DNA of 64,000 bases from Escherichia coli (GTDB lineage: Bacteria; Pseudomonadota; Gammaproteobacteria; Enterobacterales; Enterobacteriaceae). The translations under genes were made by a program, and so were the position numbers. Numbering within the stretch: position 1 is the first letter of the stretch; every line of letters starts with the position of its first letter. The notes under the pieces were generated by a model that saw only the letters and a program-made list of their open reading frames with translations, made no database searches and was not told the origin of the DNA. Shown here piece by piece: positions 4,222 through 43,026 of the stretch. The stretch lies in NCBI RefSeq assembly GCF_013315695.1, contig NZ_CP054353.1; one strand, 5' to 3'.

Positions 4222-5880
<1,659 letters not shown>

Positions 5881-6046
5881 TTACTTTTAGTCGCTTTATT
5901 GCAGGTGAGATTTGCGCGGCATCAACGGTAACACTTAAGTAACAACATTTAAATAATGTTTATAAATTATATTCTAATTTTAGAAACATTATAATTTCGT
6001 TGATTAATTATAGGGTTATTAGAAATGAAGGGATTTTTAGCATATT

Positions 6047-6073
6047 GACCTGGCGGCAGCAGTCCGCCAGGTC
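6047..6073 (-). terminator. stem-loop GACCTGGCGG-N7-CCGCCAGGTC 13 nt downstream of yojI stop
   Basis: Perfect 10-bp inverted repeat read directly; no strong U-tract, so terminator function is uncertain. Confidence 0.35.
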
Positions 6074-6085
6074 AGCGTCGAAATA

Positions 6086-7729
6086 TTATGCCGTCCGGGC
6101 AACGGCATCACGCGAAGCAGCATCGCGCTCTTCGCCTGTCAGCTCGCTAAGTTGCCCGTTGCGCATTTCCAGCAGGCGGTCAGCGTGGATAAAGTAATGA
6201 TCATCATGACTGATGGCGAATATGGTTTTACCCATCTCCTGCATCAGCGGCAGCAGCACCTGATAAAACTCACGGCGGAAGTGTGGGTCCTGATCCGCCG
6301 CCCATTCATCCAGCAGGATAATATCGCGTTCTTCTGCCAGCGCCAGCAACAGCGCGACGCGTTTTTTCTGCCCTTTTGATAACTTCAGGTTAACAATACG
6401 CCCGTTACTTAACTCAAGCTTATGAGCCATTTTCAGCTGCGCCAGCCACTTCTCAACCAGTTGCGGGTTAACGGGTTGCCCCTCCGGCCCCAGCAGTTGA
6501 TCAAACAGCCAGACATCGGTAAACACTGCCGAAAACAGTTTGCGATAATCTTCCGGTTGTTCGCCGCTGACAGGTTTGCCATCCAGCAAGATTTCGCCGC
6601 TTTGTGGCTGATACAAGCCCGTCAGCAACATCGCCAGCGTCGATTTTCCGCTACCGTTGCCACCAATCAGAAACAGCAGTTCGCCACGTTTGATGGTGAG
6701 GTTAATCGGCCCAACGGAAAACGCGTTATCCTGATAAGCAAACGTCACGTTACGCAGCTCCAGCGTTTGCCAGTTGGGAAACGCCTGCGGGCGCGGAAAC
6801 TCTGCTTTGAAAGGCGCGAGCGCGAATTTGTTCAGCTTGTTAAACGCCACCTGCGCCGTCAGCAGCGTCGGTAATGCGCCAACCGCCGAAAGCAGCGGCG
6901 TACGCAGGAATAACAGCGTCAACGAATAGGTCGCGGCAACGTTGGTATCAGCCCAACCGAGACTGTTCGCCATCCAGAACACCAGGCCGATAGCGCCCAG
7001 CATCATGATGTTTGACCAGTTCACGGCACTAAGATGGAAGGTGTCTGCGCGGATAATATGATGGCGATACTCTTGCGCATCAGGAATGTAGAGGTTGTTA
7101 AACACATACTCGGCGCGTTCCCGGTTCAGAGTCAGCTCTTTGCGCCCTTCGAGTACGGTTTGAAAATCCGTGTACAGCTTATCTTCGGTTTCACGCAGGG
7201 TCGCCATATGTTTGTACACCCGCGCCACCAGTATAAAACCACCCCAGATGGTGACTGCCATCCAGATAGCCGTTACCAGCAACATTTTGCCCGACAGCAT
7301 CCACAAATACGCCGCTGAACCGATAGTGAGAATGATCCCCTGCACCAGTTCCGGCAGACGCACAAAAGCAATGGTGATATTGCGCACATCGCTGGTTAAC
7401 CCCGCCAGCAACGAGGCGCTACCAAGTTGTTCAATGCGCTCGACATGGGTATCCAGAATCCGCTTGATAAATTCACTACGCAGTCGGTAAACGAAGTGAT
7501 GCCCCAAAGTGGTGAGCGCCAGTTGCGATCCGAGAGTGACTGCCATCAACAGCAACAATAATCCCAGAAACTCCGGCAACACCAGCAGACTGGTATCCGC
7601 CGTTTCGATAAGGCGCTGATTGATAAAAGCAATTAAGCCAATGCCTAATGCCGCACTGGCGAGGCTTAGCGCCATCACACTGATAAATGGCCAGCGATAC
7701 TGCCGCCAGACAAGTACAAGAAGTTCCAT
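6086..7729 (-). CDS. yojI: ABC transporter permease/ATPase fusion YojI (microcin J25 efflux)
   Basis: 547-aa ORF with N-terminal TM domain and C-terminal Walker A (GGNGSGKST) and ABC signature. Confidence 0.9.
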
Positions 7730-18876: not shown

Positions 18877-19555
18877 AGGGGCGAAGCTCCGCCTCAGGTG
18901 ACCGATGGAGTGTGGTTAAGGTAGCGGTAAAAGCGTGTTACCGCAATGTTCTCTCTTCTCTGGAATATGATACACCGCCGAGAAATCATCACCTTAACCT
19001 CTGATAATCGTCATATACCGGACAAGACTAGTGGATTTCAGCATGCATTATATGAAGTGGATTTATCCACGCCGCTTACGCAATCAAATGATTCTGATGG
19101 CAATCCTGATGGTCATTGTCCCAACGCTTACTATTGGTTATATCGTAGAAACAGAAGGACGTTCAGCAGTCTTATCTGAAAAAGAGAAAAAACTTTCTGC
19201 CGTGGTCAACCTGCTTAATCAGGCGCTAGGCGATCGCTATGATCTCTACATCGACTTACCGCGTGAGGAGCGTATCCGCGCATTAAATGCAGAACTTGCC
19301 CCCATTACCGAAAATATCACTCACGCCTTCCCTGGCATCGGCGCTGGTTATTACAACAAAACGCTGGATGCGATAATCACCTACGCGCCTTCAGCGCTAT
19401 ATCAGAATAATGTGGGCGTTACCATTGCCGCAGATCACCCTGGTCGCGAAGTCATGCGTACAAATACCCCTTTGGTTTATTCAGGCAGGCAGGTGCGCGG
19501 CGATATTTTGAATTCAATGATCCCCATTGAGCGTAATGGTGAAATCCTCGGCTAT

Positions 19556-19564
19556 ATCTGGGCC
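19556..19564. repeat. target-site duplication ATCTGGGCC (left copy)
   Basis: Identical 9-mer immediately flanks both IS1 ends. Confidence 0.9.
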
Positions 19565-19579
19565 GGTAATGACTCCAAC

Positions 19580-20083
19580 TTATTGATAGTGTTTTATGTT
19601 CAGATAATGCCCGATGACTTTGTCATGCAGCTCCACCGATTTTGAGAACGACAGCGACTTCCGTCCCAGCCGTGCCAGGTGCTGCCTCAGATTCAGGTTA
19701 TGCCGCTCAATTCGCTGCGTATATCGCTTGCTGATTACGTGCAGCTTTCCCTTCAGGCGGGATTCATACAGCGGCCAGCCATCCGTCATCCATATCACCA
19801 CGTCAAAGGGTGACAGCAGGCTCATAAGACGCCCCAGCGTCGCCATAGTGCGTTCACCGAATACGTGCGCAACAACCGTCTTCCGGAGCCTGTCATACGC
19901 GTAAAACAGCCAGCGCTGGCGCGATTTAGCCCCGACATAGCCCCACTGTTCGTCCATTTCCGCGCAGACGATGACGTCACTGCCCGGCTGTATGCGCGAG
20001 GTTACCGACTGCGGCCTGAGTTTTTTAAGTGACGTAAAATCGTGTTGAGGCCAACGCCCATAATGCGGGCTGTTGCCCGGCAT
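19580..20083 (-). CDS. insB: IS1 transposase InsB reading frame (expressed as InsAB' fusion by -1 frameshift)
   Basis: 167-aa ORF matching IS1 InsB. Confidence 0.9.
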
Positions 20084-20277
20084 CCAACGCCATTCATGGC
20101 CATATCAATGATTTTCTGGTGCGTACCGGGTTGAGAAGCGGTGTAAGTGAACTGCAGTTGCCATGTTTTACGGCAGTGAGAGCAGAGATAGCGCTGATGT
20201 CCGGCGGTGCTTTTGCCGTTACGCACCACCCCGTCAGTAGCTGAACAGGAGGGACAGCTGATAGAAACAGAAGCCAC
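20002..20277 (-). CDS. insA: IS1 InsA (transposition inhibitor / N-terminal part of transposase)
   Basis: 91-aa ORF with zinc-finger Cys motif (CPSCSA...CSHC) matching IS1 InsA. Confidence 0.9.
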
Positions 20278-20332
20278 TGGAGCACCTCAAAAACACCATC
20301 ATACACTAAATCAGTAAGTTGGCAGCATCACC

Positions 20333-20341
20333 ATCTGGGCC
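20333..20341. repeat. target-site duplication ATCTGGGCC (right copy)
   Basis: Identical 9-mer immediately flanks both IS1 ends. Confidence 0.9.
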
Positions 20342-21642
20342 AATGAATTAACCGAAGATATTCGCCGCCAGGCCTGGAAAATGGATGTGAGGATTATCAT
20401 TGTGCTCACCGCCGGTTTGCTGATAAGCCTGCTGTTGATTGTCCTTTTCTCCCGTCGCCTGAGCGCCAATATAGATATCATCACCGATGGCCTCTCGACT
20501 CTGGCACAAAATATTCCCACTCGATTACCACAATTGCCCGGTGAAATGGGGCAAATCAGTCAGAGTGTTAACAACCTCGCCCAGGCACTGCGTGAAACGC
20601 GGACACTTAACGATCTGATTATTGAAAACGCTGCCGATGGCGTCATTGCCATTGACCGCCAGGGTGATGTAACCACCATGAACCCGGCAGCAGAAGTCAT
20701 TACTGGCTATCAACGTCATGAACTGGTAGGGCAGCCTTACTCCATGTTGTTCGACAATACTCAGTTCTACAGTCCAGTACTGGATACGCTGGAACATGGC
20801 ACCGAACATGTAGCACTGGAGATCAGTTTTCCAGGCCGTGACCGCACCATTGAACTCAGTGTCACGACCAGTCGTATTCATAACACGCACGGTGAAATGA
20901 TAGGTGCTTTGGTGATTTTCTCTGATTTAACTGCCCGCAAAGAAACCCAGCGCCGCATGGCGCAAGCAGAACGCCTCGCTACACTGGGTGAGCTGATGGC
21001 TGGCGTGGCGCATGAAGTACGTAATCCGCTAACGGCTATTCGTGGTTATGTACAGATCTTGCGCCAACAAACCAGCGACCCAATACATCAGGAATATCTG
21101 TCCGTAGTACTCAAAGAAATCGATTCAATTAACAAAGTTATTCAGCAATTGCTCGAATTTTCACGTCCACGCCACAGTCAATGGCAACAAGTCAGCCTCA
21201 ATGCATTGGTTGAAGAAACTCTGGTACTGGTACAAACCGCCGGCGTACAAGCGCGGGTCGACTTCATAAGCGAACTGGATAATGAATTAAGCCCGATTAA
21301 CGCCGATCGTGAACTGCTCAAACAGGTACTACTGAATATCCTGATCAATGCCGTCCAGGCTATCAGTGCACGAGGGAAAATTCGCATTCGAACCTGGCAA
21401 TACAGCGACTCACAACAGGCCATTTCGATAGAGGACAACGGCTGTGGCATTGATCTCTCGCTGCAAAAAAAGATCTTCGATCCCTTTTTCACCACCAAAG
21501 CCTCAGGAACCGGGCTTGGTCTGGCGTTAAGTCAACGCATCATTAATGCCCATCAGGGTGATATTCGCGTCGCCAGTTTGCCGGGCTACGGCGCAACCTT
21601 CACGCTTATTTTACCGATCAACCCGCAGGGAAATCAGACTGT

Positions 21643-23028
21643 ATGACTGCTATTAATCGCATCCTTATTGTGGATGATGAAGATAATGTTCGCCGTATGC
21701 TGAGCACCGCTTTTGCACTACAAGGATTCGAAACACATTGTGCGAACAACGGACGCACAGCATTACACCTGTTTGCCGATATTCACCCTGACGTGGTGTT
21801 GATGGATATCCGCATGCCAGAGATGGACGGCATCAAGGCACTCAAGGAGATGCGCAGCCATGAGACACGGACACCCGTTATTCTGATGACGGCCTATGCT
21901 GAAGTGGAAACCGCCGTCGAAGCGCTACGCTGCGGGGCCTTCGACTATGTTATTAAACCGTTTGATCTCGATGAGTTGAATTTAATCGTTCAGCGCGCTT
22001 TACAACTCCAGTCAATGAAAAAAGAGATCCGTCATCTGCACCAGGCACTGAGCACCAGCTGGCAATGGGGGCACATTCTCACCAACAGCCCGGCGATGAT
22101 GGACATCTGCAAAGACACCGCCAAAATTGCCCTTTCTCAGGCCAGCGTCTTGATTAGTGGTGAAAGCGGCACCGGGAAAGAGTTGATTGCCAGAGCGATT
22201 CACTACAATTCGCGGCGGGCAAAGGGGCCGTTCATTAAAGTCAACTGCGCGGCACTGCCGGAATCGTTGCTCGAAAGTGAACTGTTTGGTCATGAAAAAG
22301 GTGCATTTACTGGTGCACAAACCTTGCGTCAGGGATTATTTGAACGTGCCAACGAAGGTACTCTGCTCCTCGACGAAATTGGTGAAATGCCGCTGGTACT
22401 GCAAGCCAAATTACTACGCATTCTGCAGGAACGGGAATTTGAGCGGATTGGCGGCCATCAGACCATAAAAGTTGATATCCGCATCATTGCTGCCACCAAC
22501 CGCGACTTGCAGGCAATGGTGAAAGAAGGCACCTTCCGTGAAGATCTCTTTTATCGCCTTAACGTTATTCATTTAATACTGCCGCCTCTGCGCGATCGCC
22601 GGGAAGATATTTCCCTGTTAGCTAATCACTTTTTGCAAAAATTCAGTAGTGAGAATCAGCGCGATATTATCGACATCGATCCGATGGCAATGTCACTGCT
22701 TACCGCCTGGTCATGGCCGGGAAATATTCGAGAGCTTTCCAACGTTATTGAACGCGCCGTCGTGATGAATTCAGGCCCGATCATTTTTTCTGAGGATCTT
22801 CCGCCGCAGATTCGTCAGCCAGTCTGTAATGCTGGTGAAGCAAAAACAGCCCCTGTCGGTGAGCGTAATTTAAAAGAGGAAATTAAACGCGTCGAAAAAC
22901 GCATCATTATGGAAGTGCTGGAACAACAAGAAGGAAACCGAACCCGCACTGCTTTAATGCTGGGCATCAGTCGCCGTGCATTGATGTATAAACTCCAGGA
23001 ATACGGTATCGATCCGGCGGATGTATAA
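21643..23028 (+). CDS. atoC: sigma54-dependent response regulator AtoC (NtrC family)
   Basis: 461-aa ORF with receiver domain, AAA+ Walker A (GESGTGKE), GAFTGA motif and C-terminal HTH; start overlaps atoS stop (ATGA). Confidence 0.9.
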   Translation: MTAINRILIVDDEDNVRRMLSTAFALQGFETHCANNGRTALHLFADIHPDVVLMDIRMPEMDGIKALKEMRSHETRTPVILMTAYAEVETAVEALRCGAFDYVIKPFDLDELNLIVQRALQLQSMKKEIRHLHQALSTSWQWGHILTNSPAMMDICKDTAKIALSQASVLISGESGTGKELIARAIHYNSRRAKGPFIKVNCAALPESLLESELFGHEKGAFTGAQTLRQGLFERANEGTLLLDEIGEMPLVLQAKLLRILQEREFERIGGHQTIKVDIRIIAATNRDLQAMVKEGTFREDLFYRLNVIHLILPPLRDRREDISLLANHFLQKFSSENQRDIIDIDPMAMSLLTAWSWPGNIRELSNVIERAVVMNSGPIIFSEDLPPQIRQPVCNAGEAKTAPVGERNLKEEIKRVEKRIIMEVLEQQEGNRTRTALMLGISRRALMYKLQEYGIDPADV

Positions 23029-29574: not shown

Positions 29575-36463
<6,889 letters not shown>

Positions 36464-36569: not shown

Positions 36570-39197
36570 TTATTCTTCTTCTGGCTCGTCGTCAACGTCC
36601 ACTTCCGGAGCGATTTCATCGTCTCCTTCCGCGGCACTGCCATCGATGGTGTCCAGATCTTCCTCGTCAACCGGTTCAGCAACACGTTGCAGACCCACTA
36701 CGTTTTCATCTTCCGCAGTACGGATGAGGATCACGCCCTGGGTGTTACGGCCCACGATGCTGATTTCTGAAACGCGAGTACGTACCAGCGTACCGGCATC
36801 GGTGATCATCATGATCTGGTCGCAGTCATCTACCTGCACCGCGCCAACCACTAAACCGTTACGTTCGGTAACCTTGATGGAGATAACCCCTTTCGTCGCA
36901 CGCGACTTGGTTGGGTATTCCGCCACTGCGGTACGTTTACCATAACCGTTCTGCGTTGCGGTGAGGATTGCGCCATCACCACGAGGTACGATCAGAGAGA
37001 CGACTTTATCGCCTTCGCCTAAACGAATACCGCGAACACCGGTGGTGTTGCAGCCCATCGCACGGACAAAAGACTCTTTAAAGCGCACCACTTTACCTTC
37101 AGCGGAGAACAGCATTACTTCATCTTCGCCACTGGTCAGGTCAACGCCGATCAGCTCATCGCCTTCAACCAGTTTGATCGCCACTTTACCGGCGGTACGC
37201 AGACGGTTGAATTCGGTGAGGACAGTTTTCTTCACGGTACCGTTAGCGGTCGCCATGAAGACTTTCACGCCTTCTTCAAACTCGGTCACCGGCAGGATCG
37301 CAGTGATACGTTCGTCCTGCTCCAGCGGCAGCAGGTTGACGATCGGACGACCACGCGCGCCACGAGTAGCTTCTGGCAACTGGTAAACCTTCATCGAATA
37401 GACGCGACCACGGCTGGAGAAGCACAGAATATGGTCGTGCGTGTTCGCCACCAGCAGTCGGTCGATAAAGTCTTCTTCTTTAATACGTGCGGCAGATTTA
37501 CCTTTCCCGCCACGACGCTGCGCTTCATATTCCGAAAGCGGCTGATATTTAACGTAGCCCTGGTGAGAGAGCGTCACGACCACATCTTCCTGGGTGATCA
37601 GATCTTCCAGGTTGATGTCTGCGCTGTTGGCGGTGATTTCAGTACGACGTTTGTCACCGAACTGTTCACGAACCAGCTCCAGCTCTTCGCGGATCACTTC
37701 CATCAGACGATCGGCGCTACCAAGAATACGCAACAGCTCCGCGATCTGATCCAGCAGCTCTTTGTATTCGTCGAGCAGTTTTTCGTGCTCAAGGCCGGTC
37801 AGTTTCTGCAAACGCAGATCCAGAATCGCCTGAGCTTGCTGTTCGGTCAGGTAGTACAGACCATCGCGCACGCCGAACTCTGGCTCCAGCCATTCCGGAC
37901 GCGCAGCATCGTCGCCCGCACGTTCCAGCATCGCGGCAACGTTGCCCAGCTGCCACGGATTAGCAACCAGCGCGGTTTTCGCTTCTGCAGGCGTCGGCGC
38001 ATGACGGATCAGTTCGATGATCGGGTCAATGTTCGCCAGCGCCACGGCTAATGCTTCAAGGATATGAGCACGATCGCGAGCTTTACGCAGTTCGAAAATG
38101 GTACGACGGGTCACCACTTCACGGCGGTGACGAACAAACGCCGCGATGATGTCTTTCAGGTTCATGATCTTCGGCTGACCATGGTGCAATGCCACCATGT
38201 TAATACCGAAAGAAACCTGCAACTGGGTCTGGGAGTAGAGGTTGTTAAGCACAACTTCACCGACCGCATCGCGTTTCACTTCAATCACGATGCGCATACC
38301 GTCTTTGTCAGACTCATCACGCAACGCGCTGATGCCTTCCACGCGTTTTTCTTTTACCAGTTCCGCAATTTTTTCGATCAGGCGAGCTTTGTTCACCTGA
38401 TACGGAATTTCGTGGACGATAATGGTTTCACGCCCGGTTTTGGCGTCAACTTCCACTTCCGCACGGGCGCGGATATACACCTTGCCACGACCGGTACGGT
38501 AAGCTTCTTCAATACCGCGACGACCGTTAATGATTGCCGCCGTCGGGAAGTCCGGCCCCGGGATGTGTTCCATCAGCCCTTCAATGCTGATGTCTTCATC
38601 ATCGATATACGCCAGACAACCGTTGATGACTTCCGTCAGGTTGTGCGGCGGGATGTTGGTTGCCATACCTACGGCGATACCGGAAGAACCGTTCACCAGC
38701 AGGTTAGGAATTTTGGTTGGCATGACGTCCGGAATTTTTTCCGTGCCGTCATAGTTATCAACGAAATCGACCGTCTCTTTTTCGAGATCGGCCATCAGTT
38801 CATGGGCAATTTTCGCCAGACGGATTTCCGTATAACGCATTGCCGCCGCAGAGTCGCCGTCGATGGAACCGAAGTTACCCTGACCGTCTACCAGCATGTA
38901 ACGCAGCGAGAATGGCTGCGCCATACGGACGATCGTGTCATAAACCGCCGAGTCACCATGGGGATGGTATTTACCGATTACGTCACCAACGACACGGGCA
39001 GATTTTTTATAGGCTTTGTTCCAGTCATTGCCTAGTACGTTCATGGCGTAAAGTACGCGACGGTGTACCGGCTTCAGGCCATCTCGGACATCCGGCAGCG
39101 CACGGCCAACAATGACCGACATCGCATAATCCAGATAGGAGCTCTTCAGCTCTTCCTCAATGTTGACCGGTGTAATTTCTCTCGCAAGGTCGCTCAT
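36570..39197 (-). CDS. gyrA: DNA gyrase subunit A
   Basis: 875-aa ORF; active-site Tyr region and QRDR ([11 protein letters not shown]) present; acidic C-terminal tail. Confidence 0.95.
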
Positions 39198-39407: not shown

Positions 39408-39527
39408 GGCTATACTCGTCATACTTCAAGTTGCATGTGCTGCGTCTGCGTTCGCTCACCCCAGTCACTTACTTATGTAAGCTCCTTGGGATTCACTCGC
39501 TTGTCGCCTTCCTGCAACTCGAATTAT
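39408..39527. repeat. ERIC/IRU enterobacterial repetitive intergenic consensus element
   Basis: Contains CGCTCACCCCAGTCACTTACTTATGTAAGCTCCTTGGGATTCAC, matching both ERIC primer-site halves as I recall them, plus the flanking imperfect palindrome. Confidence 0.7.
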
Positions 39528-39547
39528 TTAGAGTATATAAATCGCCG

Positions 39548-40750
39548 TTATTTGATCACATAGGCAAGATATTGTTGTACGATTTCATCGTTTAATTCCT
39601 GACCAAGCCCAGGCAACTCTGGCGCGACATAATAGCCATTCTCGGGTTGATAATCGTAAGTACAAAGTTCCCGAATACATGCTTTCATCGCATTGGTATG
39701 ATGTTCATGAATAATAAAGTTAGGTATTGCAGTTTCCATATGCAGCGCCGCTACTGTTGAAACAGGCCCGCCACAAACATGTACCTGAACGGTTGTGTCA
39801 TATATATTGGCATAATCACAAATTTTCTTTCCCTCTGTAATGCCACCACAAAGACACAAATCAGGTTGAGCTACCGCAATTGATTGTTTTTCCAGTAAAT
39901 CACGATATCCCCAGCGAGTATAAGAACGCTCACCTGTTGCTATCGGAATCGATGTTGAACGGGCAACTTTCTGCATATTATCCGAATTTAATGGATGAAT
40001 TGGCTCCTCATAGAGAAAAATACGATATTTCTCTATTGCTTTGGCAAACTGGATCGCTGAATTTGTTCCTAGAAGAGAATGAATCTCTACAATAATATCA
40101 GCATCGTCGCCCATTGCTTCACGCATAGCGGCAATTCTTGCCTCGCCCATTTTTAATTGTTCGGCCAGTAATAAGCCAGAGTAATTTCTATTTTTGTTCT
40201 GAAAGACACAATCGCCGCCATGCAGATCGATTTCAAGCGGATCAACTTTTATCGCATTATAACCTTCTGCAATAGCGGCACGCGCTGCCTCTGCATACTC
40301 TTCAGGCGTTACTAATATTTGCCTTTTTTCGCCCCAACCAAATTGTAACTGACTGGCGTAAGTTCTCAATTTATCGTTAGTCTTTCCCCCCAGTAGTTGA
40401 TAAACCGGCACGTTTAAATATTTACCTTTAATATCCCATAAGGCAATATCAATAGCGCTCATACCTGCGTAAAAAACATTACCACCGCCCATTCCCCAAA
40501 ATGTTTTCCTGAAGAGGAATTCCCAAATCTTCTCAATGTTCAACGGATCTTCACCAATGATGAGAGGGGCTAAATCTCTGATAATACCAACACCAGATTT
40601 TGCACCTGCACCATAGGCTAATCCTACTTCGCCAACACCACTTATTCCAGCATCGGTATTAACCCGAATAAGTACTGGATTATAAGAGGCCATAGTTTGA
40701 TCTCTTTTTTTGAGTTCGCAGTCAAAAATTTCTACAGATGTAATCTTCAT
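39548..40750 (-). CDS. enolase-superfamily sugar-acid dehydratase (mandelate racemase/muconate lactonizing enzyme fold; DgoD/ManD-like)
   Basis: ORF 39548..40762; start placed at ATG 40750 (MKITSVEIF...) which has a GAGG Shine-Dalgarno 7 nt upstream; N-terminal capping domain and metal-binding barrel motifs typical of the family. Confidence 0.8.
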   Translation of the reverse strand: MKITSVEIFDCELKKRDQTMASYNPVLIRVNTDAGISGVGEVGLAYGAGAKSGVGIIRDLAPLIIGEDPLNIEKIWEFLFRKTFWGMGGGNVFYAGMSAIDIALWDIKGKYLNVPVYQLLGGKTNDKLRTYASQLQFGWGEKRQILVTPEEYAEAARAAIAEGYNAIKVDPLEIDLHGGDCVFQNKNRNYSGLLLAEQLKMGEARIAAMREAMGDDADIIVEIHSLLGTNSAIQFAKAIEKYRIFLYEEPIHPLNSDNMQKVARSTSIPIATGERSYTRWGYRDLLEKQSIAVAQPDLCLCGGITEGKKICDYANIYDTTVQVHVCGGPVSTVAALHMETAIPNFIIHEHHTNAMKACIRELCTYDYQPENGYYVAPELPGLGQELNDEIVQQYLAYVIK

Positions 40751-40762
40751 AAATAACCTCAT

Positions 40763-41998
40763 TTATTTAGCATGTGAAATAACATTGTCTTTCTGGGCGT
40801 TATCTTTTTTATTATCAATTTTCATTGATAACAAAATAGCTACGGCGATAAAGCAAAGAATCGCCTCAACAATAAATATCCCCGTGGCTCCATAATGTGT
40901 AGAAACATAGCCAAGTGATTTATTGATCAGAAAACCACCCAAACTTGAACAAGAGTTAATAAACGCAATACTGATTGCCAGGCCTGATGGTGAAAGTAAA
41001 GCTGAGGGTAAAGCCCAGTACGGACCGTAATAACTGAGAATGCCTACACCGTATAATGTTAATCCCATCATGCGCAGCGTCATCGAAGGTACAAGTGCGA
41101 TCATTAAAAAACCGCAACCTGCAACCAACATCGGTAGTGCGGCATGCCATTTCCTTTCATTCTTTTTATCGGAATGCCATCCCCATAATGGCATACTGAA
41201 CATCGCGAAAATAAACGGAATACTCATAATCAAACCGACATCGGTATCTGTGAAATCCGATGAAAATCCTTTAACCAACCCCGGTAACCAGTAATTTGCC
41301 GCCAACGCCGCTGCCTGAATAAACATATAAGCAAATGAGAGTTGTAGTAATACTGGATTTTTAATGATTGACAGAAAAGATGCATTTGTATTTTTATTTA
41401 ATGCTGCGGCTTTTTCGTTATCAGAATTAAGTTTATCGACCAATGCGGTGACTTGCGATGGTGTAAGCCAGCGGGCTTTTTCCGGACGATCTGGCAGTAA
41501 ATAAAAGGTCAGCGCCCCCAATAACACCGTAGGAATGCCTTCAATAGCAAAAAGCCAGCGCCATCCTTCATAGTTACCGGTATTCATATGTTCAATAATC
41601 CAACCAGACATTGGTGCCGCCAGCACAGATGCAACTGCGATTGATAACATAAAAAAGCTATTCACTTTTCCACGTTCGCGCGCCGGGAACCAACATGCCA
41701 GGTAGTAAACCATGCCAGGGAAAAACCCCGCTTCAAATATTCCCAAAAAGACCCGAGCGAGCAATATATGCTGGGTGTCTTTGGCAAAGAAAATTAACGT
41801 TGTTACTGTTCCCCAACCAACAATAATGGCGCTAATCCATTTTCTTGCACCTAACTTTTGCAATCCAATACTGCTCGGAGTTTGAAAAATTAAATAGGAC
41901 ACAAAAAATATTGAAGATATATTAGCAAAATCCTCTGGAGTAATACCAAGGGATTCATTCATGCGTAAAGCGGCAAACCCAATATTAACACGATCCAT
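40763..41998 (-). CDS. MFS transporter, anion:cation symporter-like (sugar-acid uptake); 5' end apparently frameshifted, see findings
   Basis: 411-aa ORF with MFS signature (DRVNIGFAA...) ; the expected first about 31 codons are in a different frame (ATG at 42090). Confidence 0.75.
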   Translation of the reverse strand: MDRVNIGFAALRMNESLGITPEDFANISSIFFVSYLIFQTPSSIGLQKLGARKWISAIIVGWGTVTTLIFFAKDTQHILLARVFLGIFEAGFFPGMVYYLACWFPARERGKVNSFFMLSIAVASVLAAPMSGWIIEHMNTGNYEGWRWLFAIEGIPTVLLGALTFYLLPDRPEKARWLTPSQVTALVDKLNSDNEKAAALNKNTNASFLSIIKNPVLLQLSFAYMFIQAAALAANYWLPGLVKGFSSDFTDTDVGLIMSIPFIFAMFSMPLWGWHSDKKNERKWHAALPMLVAGCGFLMIALVPSMTLRMMGLTLYGVGILSYYGPYWALPSALLSPSGLAISIAFINSCSSLGGFLINKSLGYVSTHYGATGIFIVEAILCFIAVAILLSMKIDNKKDNAQKDNVISHAK

Positions 41999-42180
41999 AT
42001 AGTTAAAAAATACAGAATAAATGCTAACGGAATAATCTTCCTTTTCACAATAGAAATGGCATCATACAAATCTTTCTGAGGACTGCTCATTTTGTTTCAC
42101 CTTTTGTGCTTCAATGAATAAGAGTACTACCCGAAGTGGATATTACGTAAAAAATAATCCAGTTCAAAAGGTGATGTGTT

Positions 42181-42196
42181 ATATCTGATATATCAG
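42181..42196. promoter_or_regulatory. palindromic operator-like site ATATCTGATATATCAG (copy 1) in divergent MFS/GntR promoter region
   Basis: CTGATATATCAG is a perfect palindrome; near-identical copy 70 bp downstream. Confidence 0.5.
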
Positions 42197-42250
42197 CCTG
42201 ATCATTGATTGAAACACTAACCTACAACAATAAGATACATTATTTTTGTC

Positions 42251-42266
42251 ATATCTGATATATTAG
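42251..42266. promoter_or_regulatory. operator-like site ATATCTGATATATTAG (copy 2)
   Basis: 15/16 identical to copy 1; 62 bp upstream of the GntR gene start. Confidence 0.5.
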
Positions 42267-42327
42267 ACACCTTCATTTATAAAATGATTACATATAATGG
42301 GTCAGCAGCTTAATAAGGGGCAAAGGA

Positions 42328-43026
42328 ATGAGAGATAAAGCGAAACGTGACTTAAGTCACATATCAATTGAGATACCAAAATCCGTAACCCAGGTCATCA
42401 AAGAAAAAATCAGGGATATGATAATTCATGGCGATCTCAGTCTTGGGCAACCGATAAGTGAAAATGAACTTTCGAATATTCTGGCGGTAAGTAAAACACC
42501 TATTCGTGAAGCTTTTATTTTACTTAGTCACAATGAAAATCTGATCAATATCATTCCACGCAGCGGAACATTCGTTTTTTCCGTAACAGATAAAGATATT
42601 AATGACCTCATAAAAATGCGAGTAATTCTGGAGCAGGGTGCAATTAGTGAAACAATGGAAAAGAATGCAAACAATGTCATCATTGAACTAAATAGTATAC
42701 TATCAAAATCAGCAAAAATTAATGCCGAGCGCGATACTCAGGCTTATCTTAAACTGGATCATGATTTTCATTATGTGTTTGTTAAATACGCTGATAATAA
42801 ATACATCTCTCAGGCACACCAATTGATATCCGCACGTTTACTTGCTATCCGTTATCGACTGGATTTCACTACGGAATATATCACCAATTCAAATCGTGGC
42901 CATGCGACTATTTTAGATATGCTAAAAAATAATAACGTTGAAGGTGTTTGTAATTTTATTACTCATCACGTAAGTAGTGGATTTACCGAGCGCGCACGAA
43001 AAATTCTCTCGTTATCTACACAGTAA
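42328..43026 (+). CDS. GntR-family transcriptional regulator (N-terminal wHTH, C-terminal FCD-like domain)
   Basis: 232-aa ORF with GntR HTH signature (ISENELSNILAVSKTPIREAF); strongly A/T-ending codon usage. Confidence 0.8.
   Translation: MRDKAKRDLSHISIEIPKSVTQVIKEKIRDMIIHGDLSLGQPISENELSNILAVSKTPIREAFILLSHNENLINIIPRSGTFVFSVTDKDINDLIKMRVILEQGAISETMEKNANNVIIELNSILSKSAKINAERDTQAYLKLDHDFHYVFVKYADNKYISQAHQLISARLLAIRYRLDFTTEYITNSNRGHATILDMLKNNNVEGVCNFITHHVSSGFTERARKILSLSTQ

Follow-up and report, generated by a model that had tools for sequence, protein, structure and literature searches.

An unmutated quinolone-binding site in gyrA from a natural Escherichia coli isolate closely related to MSB1_4I

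The gene for DNA gyrase subunit A, gyrA, in a 64,000-nucleotide stretch of Escherichia coli DNA (the window) is almost certainly, with a probability of about 0.97, an ordinary, intact gene of a natural isolate from the same clone as strain MSB1_4I, with an unmutated quinolone-binding site. Codons 83 and 87 encode the serine and the aspartate of the susceptible allele. This call is a genotype in a conserved, essential gene, so that chance is not an issue. The finding of a wild-type quinolone-resistance-determining region (QRDR) is correct and already known, being the textbook allele of a thoroughly characterised gene.

The gene and the landmarks that bear on the quinolone site are as follows, in window coordinates:

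36570..39197, minus strand: gyrA coding sequence (DNA gyrase subunit A), 875 amino acids plus stop, assigned by open reading frame and homology
38880..38999, minus strand: QRDR, codons 67-106, identical in protein sequence to K-12
38949..38951, minus strand: codon 83, TCG, serine, the susceptible allele, read directly and the same codon as in K-12
38937..38939, minus strand: codon 87, GAC, aspartate, the susceptible allele, read directly and the same codon as in K-12
38832..38834, minus strand: codon 122, TAT, tyrosine, intact by comparison with K-12

The start ATG of the open reading frame is also the start of the RefSeq gyrA coding sequence in MSB1_4I, and codon n starts at window position 39197-3(n-1). 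The gyrA product of K-12 MG1655 (b2231) has the same start and the same length of 875 residues, and the two proteins align with zero indels, so that K-12 residue numbering applies directly. The whole protein clears the NCBIfam cutoffs with 1307.7 bits for the gyrA equivalog TIGR01063 (cutoff 877) and 1256.9 bits for NF004043 (cutoff 902), whereas the Gram-negative parC model (parC_Gneg, TIGR01062) reaches 580.6 bits, under its cutoff of 628.9. The gene is flanked by yfaA downstream and by ubiG upstream, with a three-gene island between gyrA and ubiG, and the order yfaA-gyrA-ubiG is that of the conserved E. coli gyrA locus. The NCBIfam scores and synteny together rule out identification of 36570..39197 on the minus strand as parC.

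The domain architecture is also that of GyrA, with an N-terminal breakage-reunion domain followed by a C-terminal six-bladed beta-pinwheel. The topoisomerase IIA breakage-reunion domain PF00521 (DNA_topoisoIV) matches residues 32-507 with 543 bits, and six repeats, or blades, of PF03989 (DNA_gyraseA_C) are matched in the C-terminus. The E. coli GyrA structures 6rks and 7z9c match over the full length of the protein, and the C-terminal domain structure 1zi0 matches residues 535-841. The translation contains the GyrA box QRRGGKG, which sits in the first blade of the C-terminal domain and tells GyrA apart from ParC. Tyr122, the active-site, catalytic tyrosine in E. coli numbering, is the same in K-12 and in the window.

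On the minus strand, positions 38960..38937 read CAT GGT GAC TCG GCG GTT TAT GAC, or H80 G81 D82 S83 A84 V85 Y86 D87, and the segment 38937-38951 translates to SAVYD, which is exactly GyrA codons 83 to 87. A sequence-only reading of the window had placed Ser83 (TCG) and Asp87 (GAC) in that segment and had reported the common S83L and D87N/G/Y substitutions as absent; the direct read bears out the position, both residues and the absence of the substitutions, with both codons identical to those of K-12, and re-reading 38937..38960 gave no other residue at either codon. As a positive control, the same script reads L83 and N87 in E. coli SMS-3-5, an example of the clinical S83L/D87N alleles, in contrast to Ser83 and Asp87 in the window. 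The QRDR as a whole holds only three nucleotide differences from K-12, at nucleotides 255, 273 and 300 of the gene, and all are synonymous. The reported resistance positions A51, A67, G81, D82, A84, Q106, A119 and A196 were also checked, and each is as in K-12, as are S83, D87 and Y122. Among them, A119E has been reported as a GyrA resistance substitution (PMC11721436).

As residues of the DNA-binding/cleavage domain of GyrA, Ser83 and Asp87 anchor the water-Mg2+ bridge by which fluoroquinolones contact gyrase. With both anchors kept and the remaining QRDR unchanged, the drug would be predicted to dock normally and to trap the cleavage complex. The gyrase target is thus expected to be fully drug-sensitive, and gyrA would mediate no resistance to either nalidixic acid or ciprofloxacin. 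Gyrase should therefore be susceptible as judged from its genotype, a prediction that concerns the drug target and not the whole cell. The sequence-only reading had likewise predicted no gyrA-mediated fluoroquinolone resistance, which is supported at the level of genotype by the lack of any known gyrA target mutation, and it had rightly limited that prediction to resistance mediated by gyrA rather than extending it to overall susceptibility.

The nearest complete genome is informative for the loci that lie beyond the window. MSB1_4I (NZ_LR898874.1; GyrA WP_021562961.1) is an E. coli human rectal-swab isolate from Australia, and its gyrA is 100% identical to that of the window over 2628 nucleotides; only six of 5425 genomes have a gyrA with at least 99% identity. 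In the literature, a single paper, on an unrelated subject, was found to mention this strain. The whole 64-kb window is collinear, in reverse orientation, with positions 1714783-1778782 of MSB1_4I. The two differ by five SNPs, and there are no indels except one insertion, an extra IS1 in atoS. The SNPs relative to MSB1_4I are:

9043: ada, F159, synonymous
10817: ompC, R349, synonymous
41891: in the pseudogene of a transporter of the MFS family
45872: yfaL, an autotransporter adhesin, T618I, non-synonymous
57897: glpA-glpT intergenic region

The insertion that separates the two genomes has the following parts:

19043-21646, plus strand: atoS, a sensor kinase gene, interrupted by IS1
19565-20332: IS1, 768 bp, flanked by 9-bp direct repeats at 19556-19564 and 20333-20341

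The 9-bp target-site duplication is ATCTGGGCC, and IS1 cuts atoS after codon 174 of 608. Three resident IS1A copies of MSB1_4I were compared with the element, two of which match it at 100% identity, and MSB1_4I itself is without the IS1 that interrupts atoS in the window strain. The IS1-atoS junction was found in none of the 5426 complete RefSeq E. coli genomes; the sole match with 100% coverage, H26, is made up of two segments that join over 606 bp and represents a different junction. The insertion is likely a recent transposition, one that would abolish AtoSC-dependent use of acetoacetate and short-chain fatty acids. Given the extra IS1 and a junction that is in no complete genome, the window is, on the alignment, judged to come from a very close relative of MSB1_4I and not from the MSB1_4I assembly.

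Fluoroquinolone susceptibility might be reduced despite the wild-type gyrA QRDR, through loci beyond the window. The causes to consider would be mutations in gyrB, parC or parE, the plasmid-borne genes qnr, aac(6')-Ib-cr, qepA and oqxAB, or efflux raised through marR, acrR or soxR, and we regard such a route as unlikely. These loci lie beyond the window, which cannot speak to them, and MSB1_4I has at least two large plasmids of IncF type, with blaCTX-M-14 on one of them, a sign that mobile resistance genes are taken up in this lineage. Against this, the hot spots of the other topoisomerase genes are wild type in MSB1_4I, which serves as a proxy only, given that these genes lie outside the window: D426, K447 and S464 in GyrB; G78, S80 and E84 in ParC; and L416, L445, S458, E460 and I529 in ParE. 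The sole differences from K-12 are GyrB S492N and A618T, ParC D475E and ParE I355T. A published table gives all four for isolates of ST354 and some of them for further sequence types (PMC10638923); they are probably background polymorphisms, not resistance mutations. Neither the window region nor the first 50 kb of MSB1_4I plasmids 2 and 3 has an annotated qnr or similar gene, and the plasmid content of MSB1_4I does not transfer to the window strain. Resistance through parC alone is also unlikely, since first-step chromosomal quinolone resistance in E. coli normally arises in gyrA.

Two loci of MSB1_4I were observed alongside this comparison. A blaCTX-M-14/ISEcp1 unit lies on the IncFII plasmid NZ_LR898876.1 at 5405-6280, and genes for neuB, neuC and a polysialyltransferase lie at about 832-840 kb of NZ_LR898874.1, suggesting a K1-type capsule locus. 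The capsule genes together with blaCTX-M-14 indicate that the clone is a lineage of extra-intestinal type that carries an ESBL, even though its topoisomerase genes are wild type.

The GyrA protein of the window differs from that of K-12 at only two of 875 residues, both of them in the C-terminal domain:

37164..37166, minus strand: codon 678, GAA, glutamate (D678E relative to K-12), a C-terminal domain polymorphism
37068..37070, minus strand: codon 710, TTT, phenylalanine (S710F relative to K-12; TCT->TTT), in the C-terminal beta-pinwheel and specific to the clone

E678 is common to AF3, MS 21-1 and LR-28, which have the three closest non-identical gyrA alleles compared and are all wild type in the QRDR. 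F710, on the other hand, is found in MSB1_4I only among the close relatives compared, with serine in AF3, MS 21-1 and LR-28, and serine also in SMS-3-5. S710F was therefore rejected as a lineage marker, given the serine of the sister genomes AF3, MS 21-1 and LR-28. Nor is it likely to be a sequencing error: the exact protein of the window, with both E678 and F710, occurs on 190 public contigs, and S710F is on that account taken to be a real allele of a circulating clone.

It could be argued that D678E, S710F or both, lying in the DNA-wrapping domain, alter gyrase activity or the response to quinolones, such that the gene is not functionally wild type. The serine to phenylalanine change is non-conservative, and among the close relatives compared only the window strain and MSB1_4I have it, yet it is fixed in the clone found on the 190 contigs. 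The drug pocket lies at the DNA gate, however, structurally apart from the C-terminal domain, and residues 678 and 710 both fall within the part of that domain that is matched by PDB 1zi0, away from the pocket. One study does list D678E as putatively resistance-associated (PMC11721436), but E678 coexists with a wild-type QRDR in AF3, MS 21-1 and LR-28, and elsewhere D678E accompanies S83L and D87N in tables that cover several sequence types (PMC10638923), a pattern that would fit a phylogenetic marker or polymorphism. An altered gyrase is accordingly very unlikely, and still more doubtful is the idea that S710F is adaptive and, with the QRDR left as it is, shifts quinolone tolerance or the supercoiling set-point. 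The preferred reading remains that of an ordinary gyrA with an unmutated quinolone site.

The gyrA96 allele carries one substitution, GAC->AAC at codon 87 (D87N), and was selected while DH1 was constructed, according to a genome analysis of JM109 and XL1-Blue (PMC11148124). DH1, DH5alpha, JM109 and XL1-Blue carry gyrA96, with AAC at codon 87, in contrast to GAC in the window. The wild-type codons had been taken as an argument that the strain is not a gyrA96-type laboratory derivative, and that conclusion holds: D87N is absent, and the backbone is not that of K-12, so that a gyrA96-type K-12 derivative can be rejected. As evidence against laboratory origin, the gyrA96 argument is nonetheless the weakest available, because many laboratory strains are gyrA+. 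The stronger argument is the non-K-12 backbone, with its nucleotide divergence in gyrA, the 3.9-kb island and an intact yfaS. That the sequence comes from a K-12 laboratory strain that is gyrA+ has next to no chance of being true, near as the GyrA protein is to that of K-12: the window gyrA departs from that of K-12 at 55 nucleotides (97.9% identity), two of these differences being non-synonymous, an intergenic region of K-12 takes the place of an island that just 140 of 5426 complete genomes carry, yfaS is a pseudogene in K-12 and intact in the window, and the window nearly coincides in sequence with MSB1_4I, a clinical carriage isolate. The divergence of gyrA and the island already suffice to refute a K-12 laboratory origin.

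The features that set this region apart from K-12, or that lie next to gyrA, are:

29575-34089, minus strand: yfaS, a gene of the alpha-2-macroglobulin family, 4515 nucleotides, intact by the MSB1_4I annotation
39548-40762, minus strand: island gene for an enzyme of the enolase superfamily (mandelate racemase/muconate lactonizing)
about 40763-42090, minus strand: island gene for an MFS transporter
about 42284-43026, plus strand: island gene for a GntR regulator

The island as a whole, 3.9 kb with three genes, lies between gyrA and ubiG at window positions 39548-43026 and is missing from K-12. In MSB1_4I, its MFS and GntR genes both carry a RefSeq frameshift flag, and since the window has no indels relative to MSB1_4I in these genes, it shares both frameshifts. 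A multi-copy repeat of about 130 bp was also observed upstream of gyrA, at about 39411-39545, with a median of six places per genome. It contains CGCTCACCCCAGTCACTTACTT, the ERIC2 primer site in reverse complement, and ATGTAAGCTCCTTGGGATTCAC, the ERIC1R primer site with one mismatch. These primer sites identify the repeat as an ERIC/IRU intergenic repeat.

The wild-type state of the QRDR is common. Among 5426 complete RefSeq E. coli genomes, 2013 contain the exact 30-mer of the window over gyrA codons 80-89, and a further 639 contain the synonymous 30-mer of K-12, with GTC at codon 85. The search used a 28-base word, such that a mismatch anywhere at query positions 3-28 kills the match, and the counts therefore represent the exact wild-type sequence. 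At least 2652 of the 5426 genomes (49%), a lower bound, are thus wild type over codons 80-89 in one version or the other, and Ser83 with Asp87 is the common state, shared by roughly half of the E. coli sequenced.

The use of the result is in routine genotype-to-phenotype annotation, and no new biology is implied. With gyrA free of target mutations, any quinolone resistance in this strain would need another source. The gyrA result also helps to assign the sequence to a natural isolate from the MSB1_4I clone, as opposed to a gyrA96 cloning strain.
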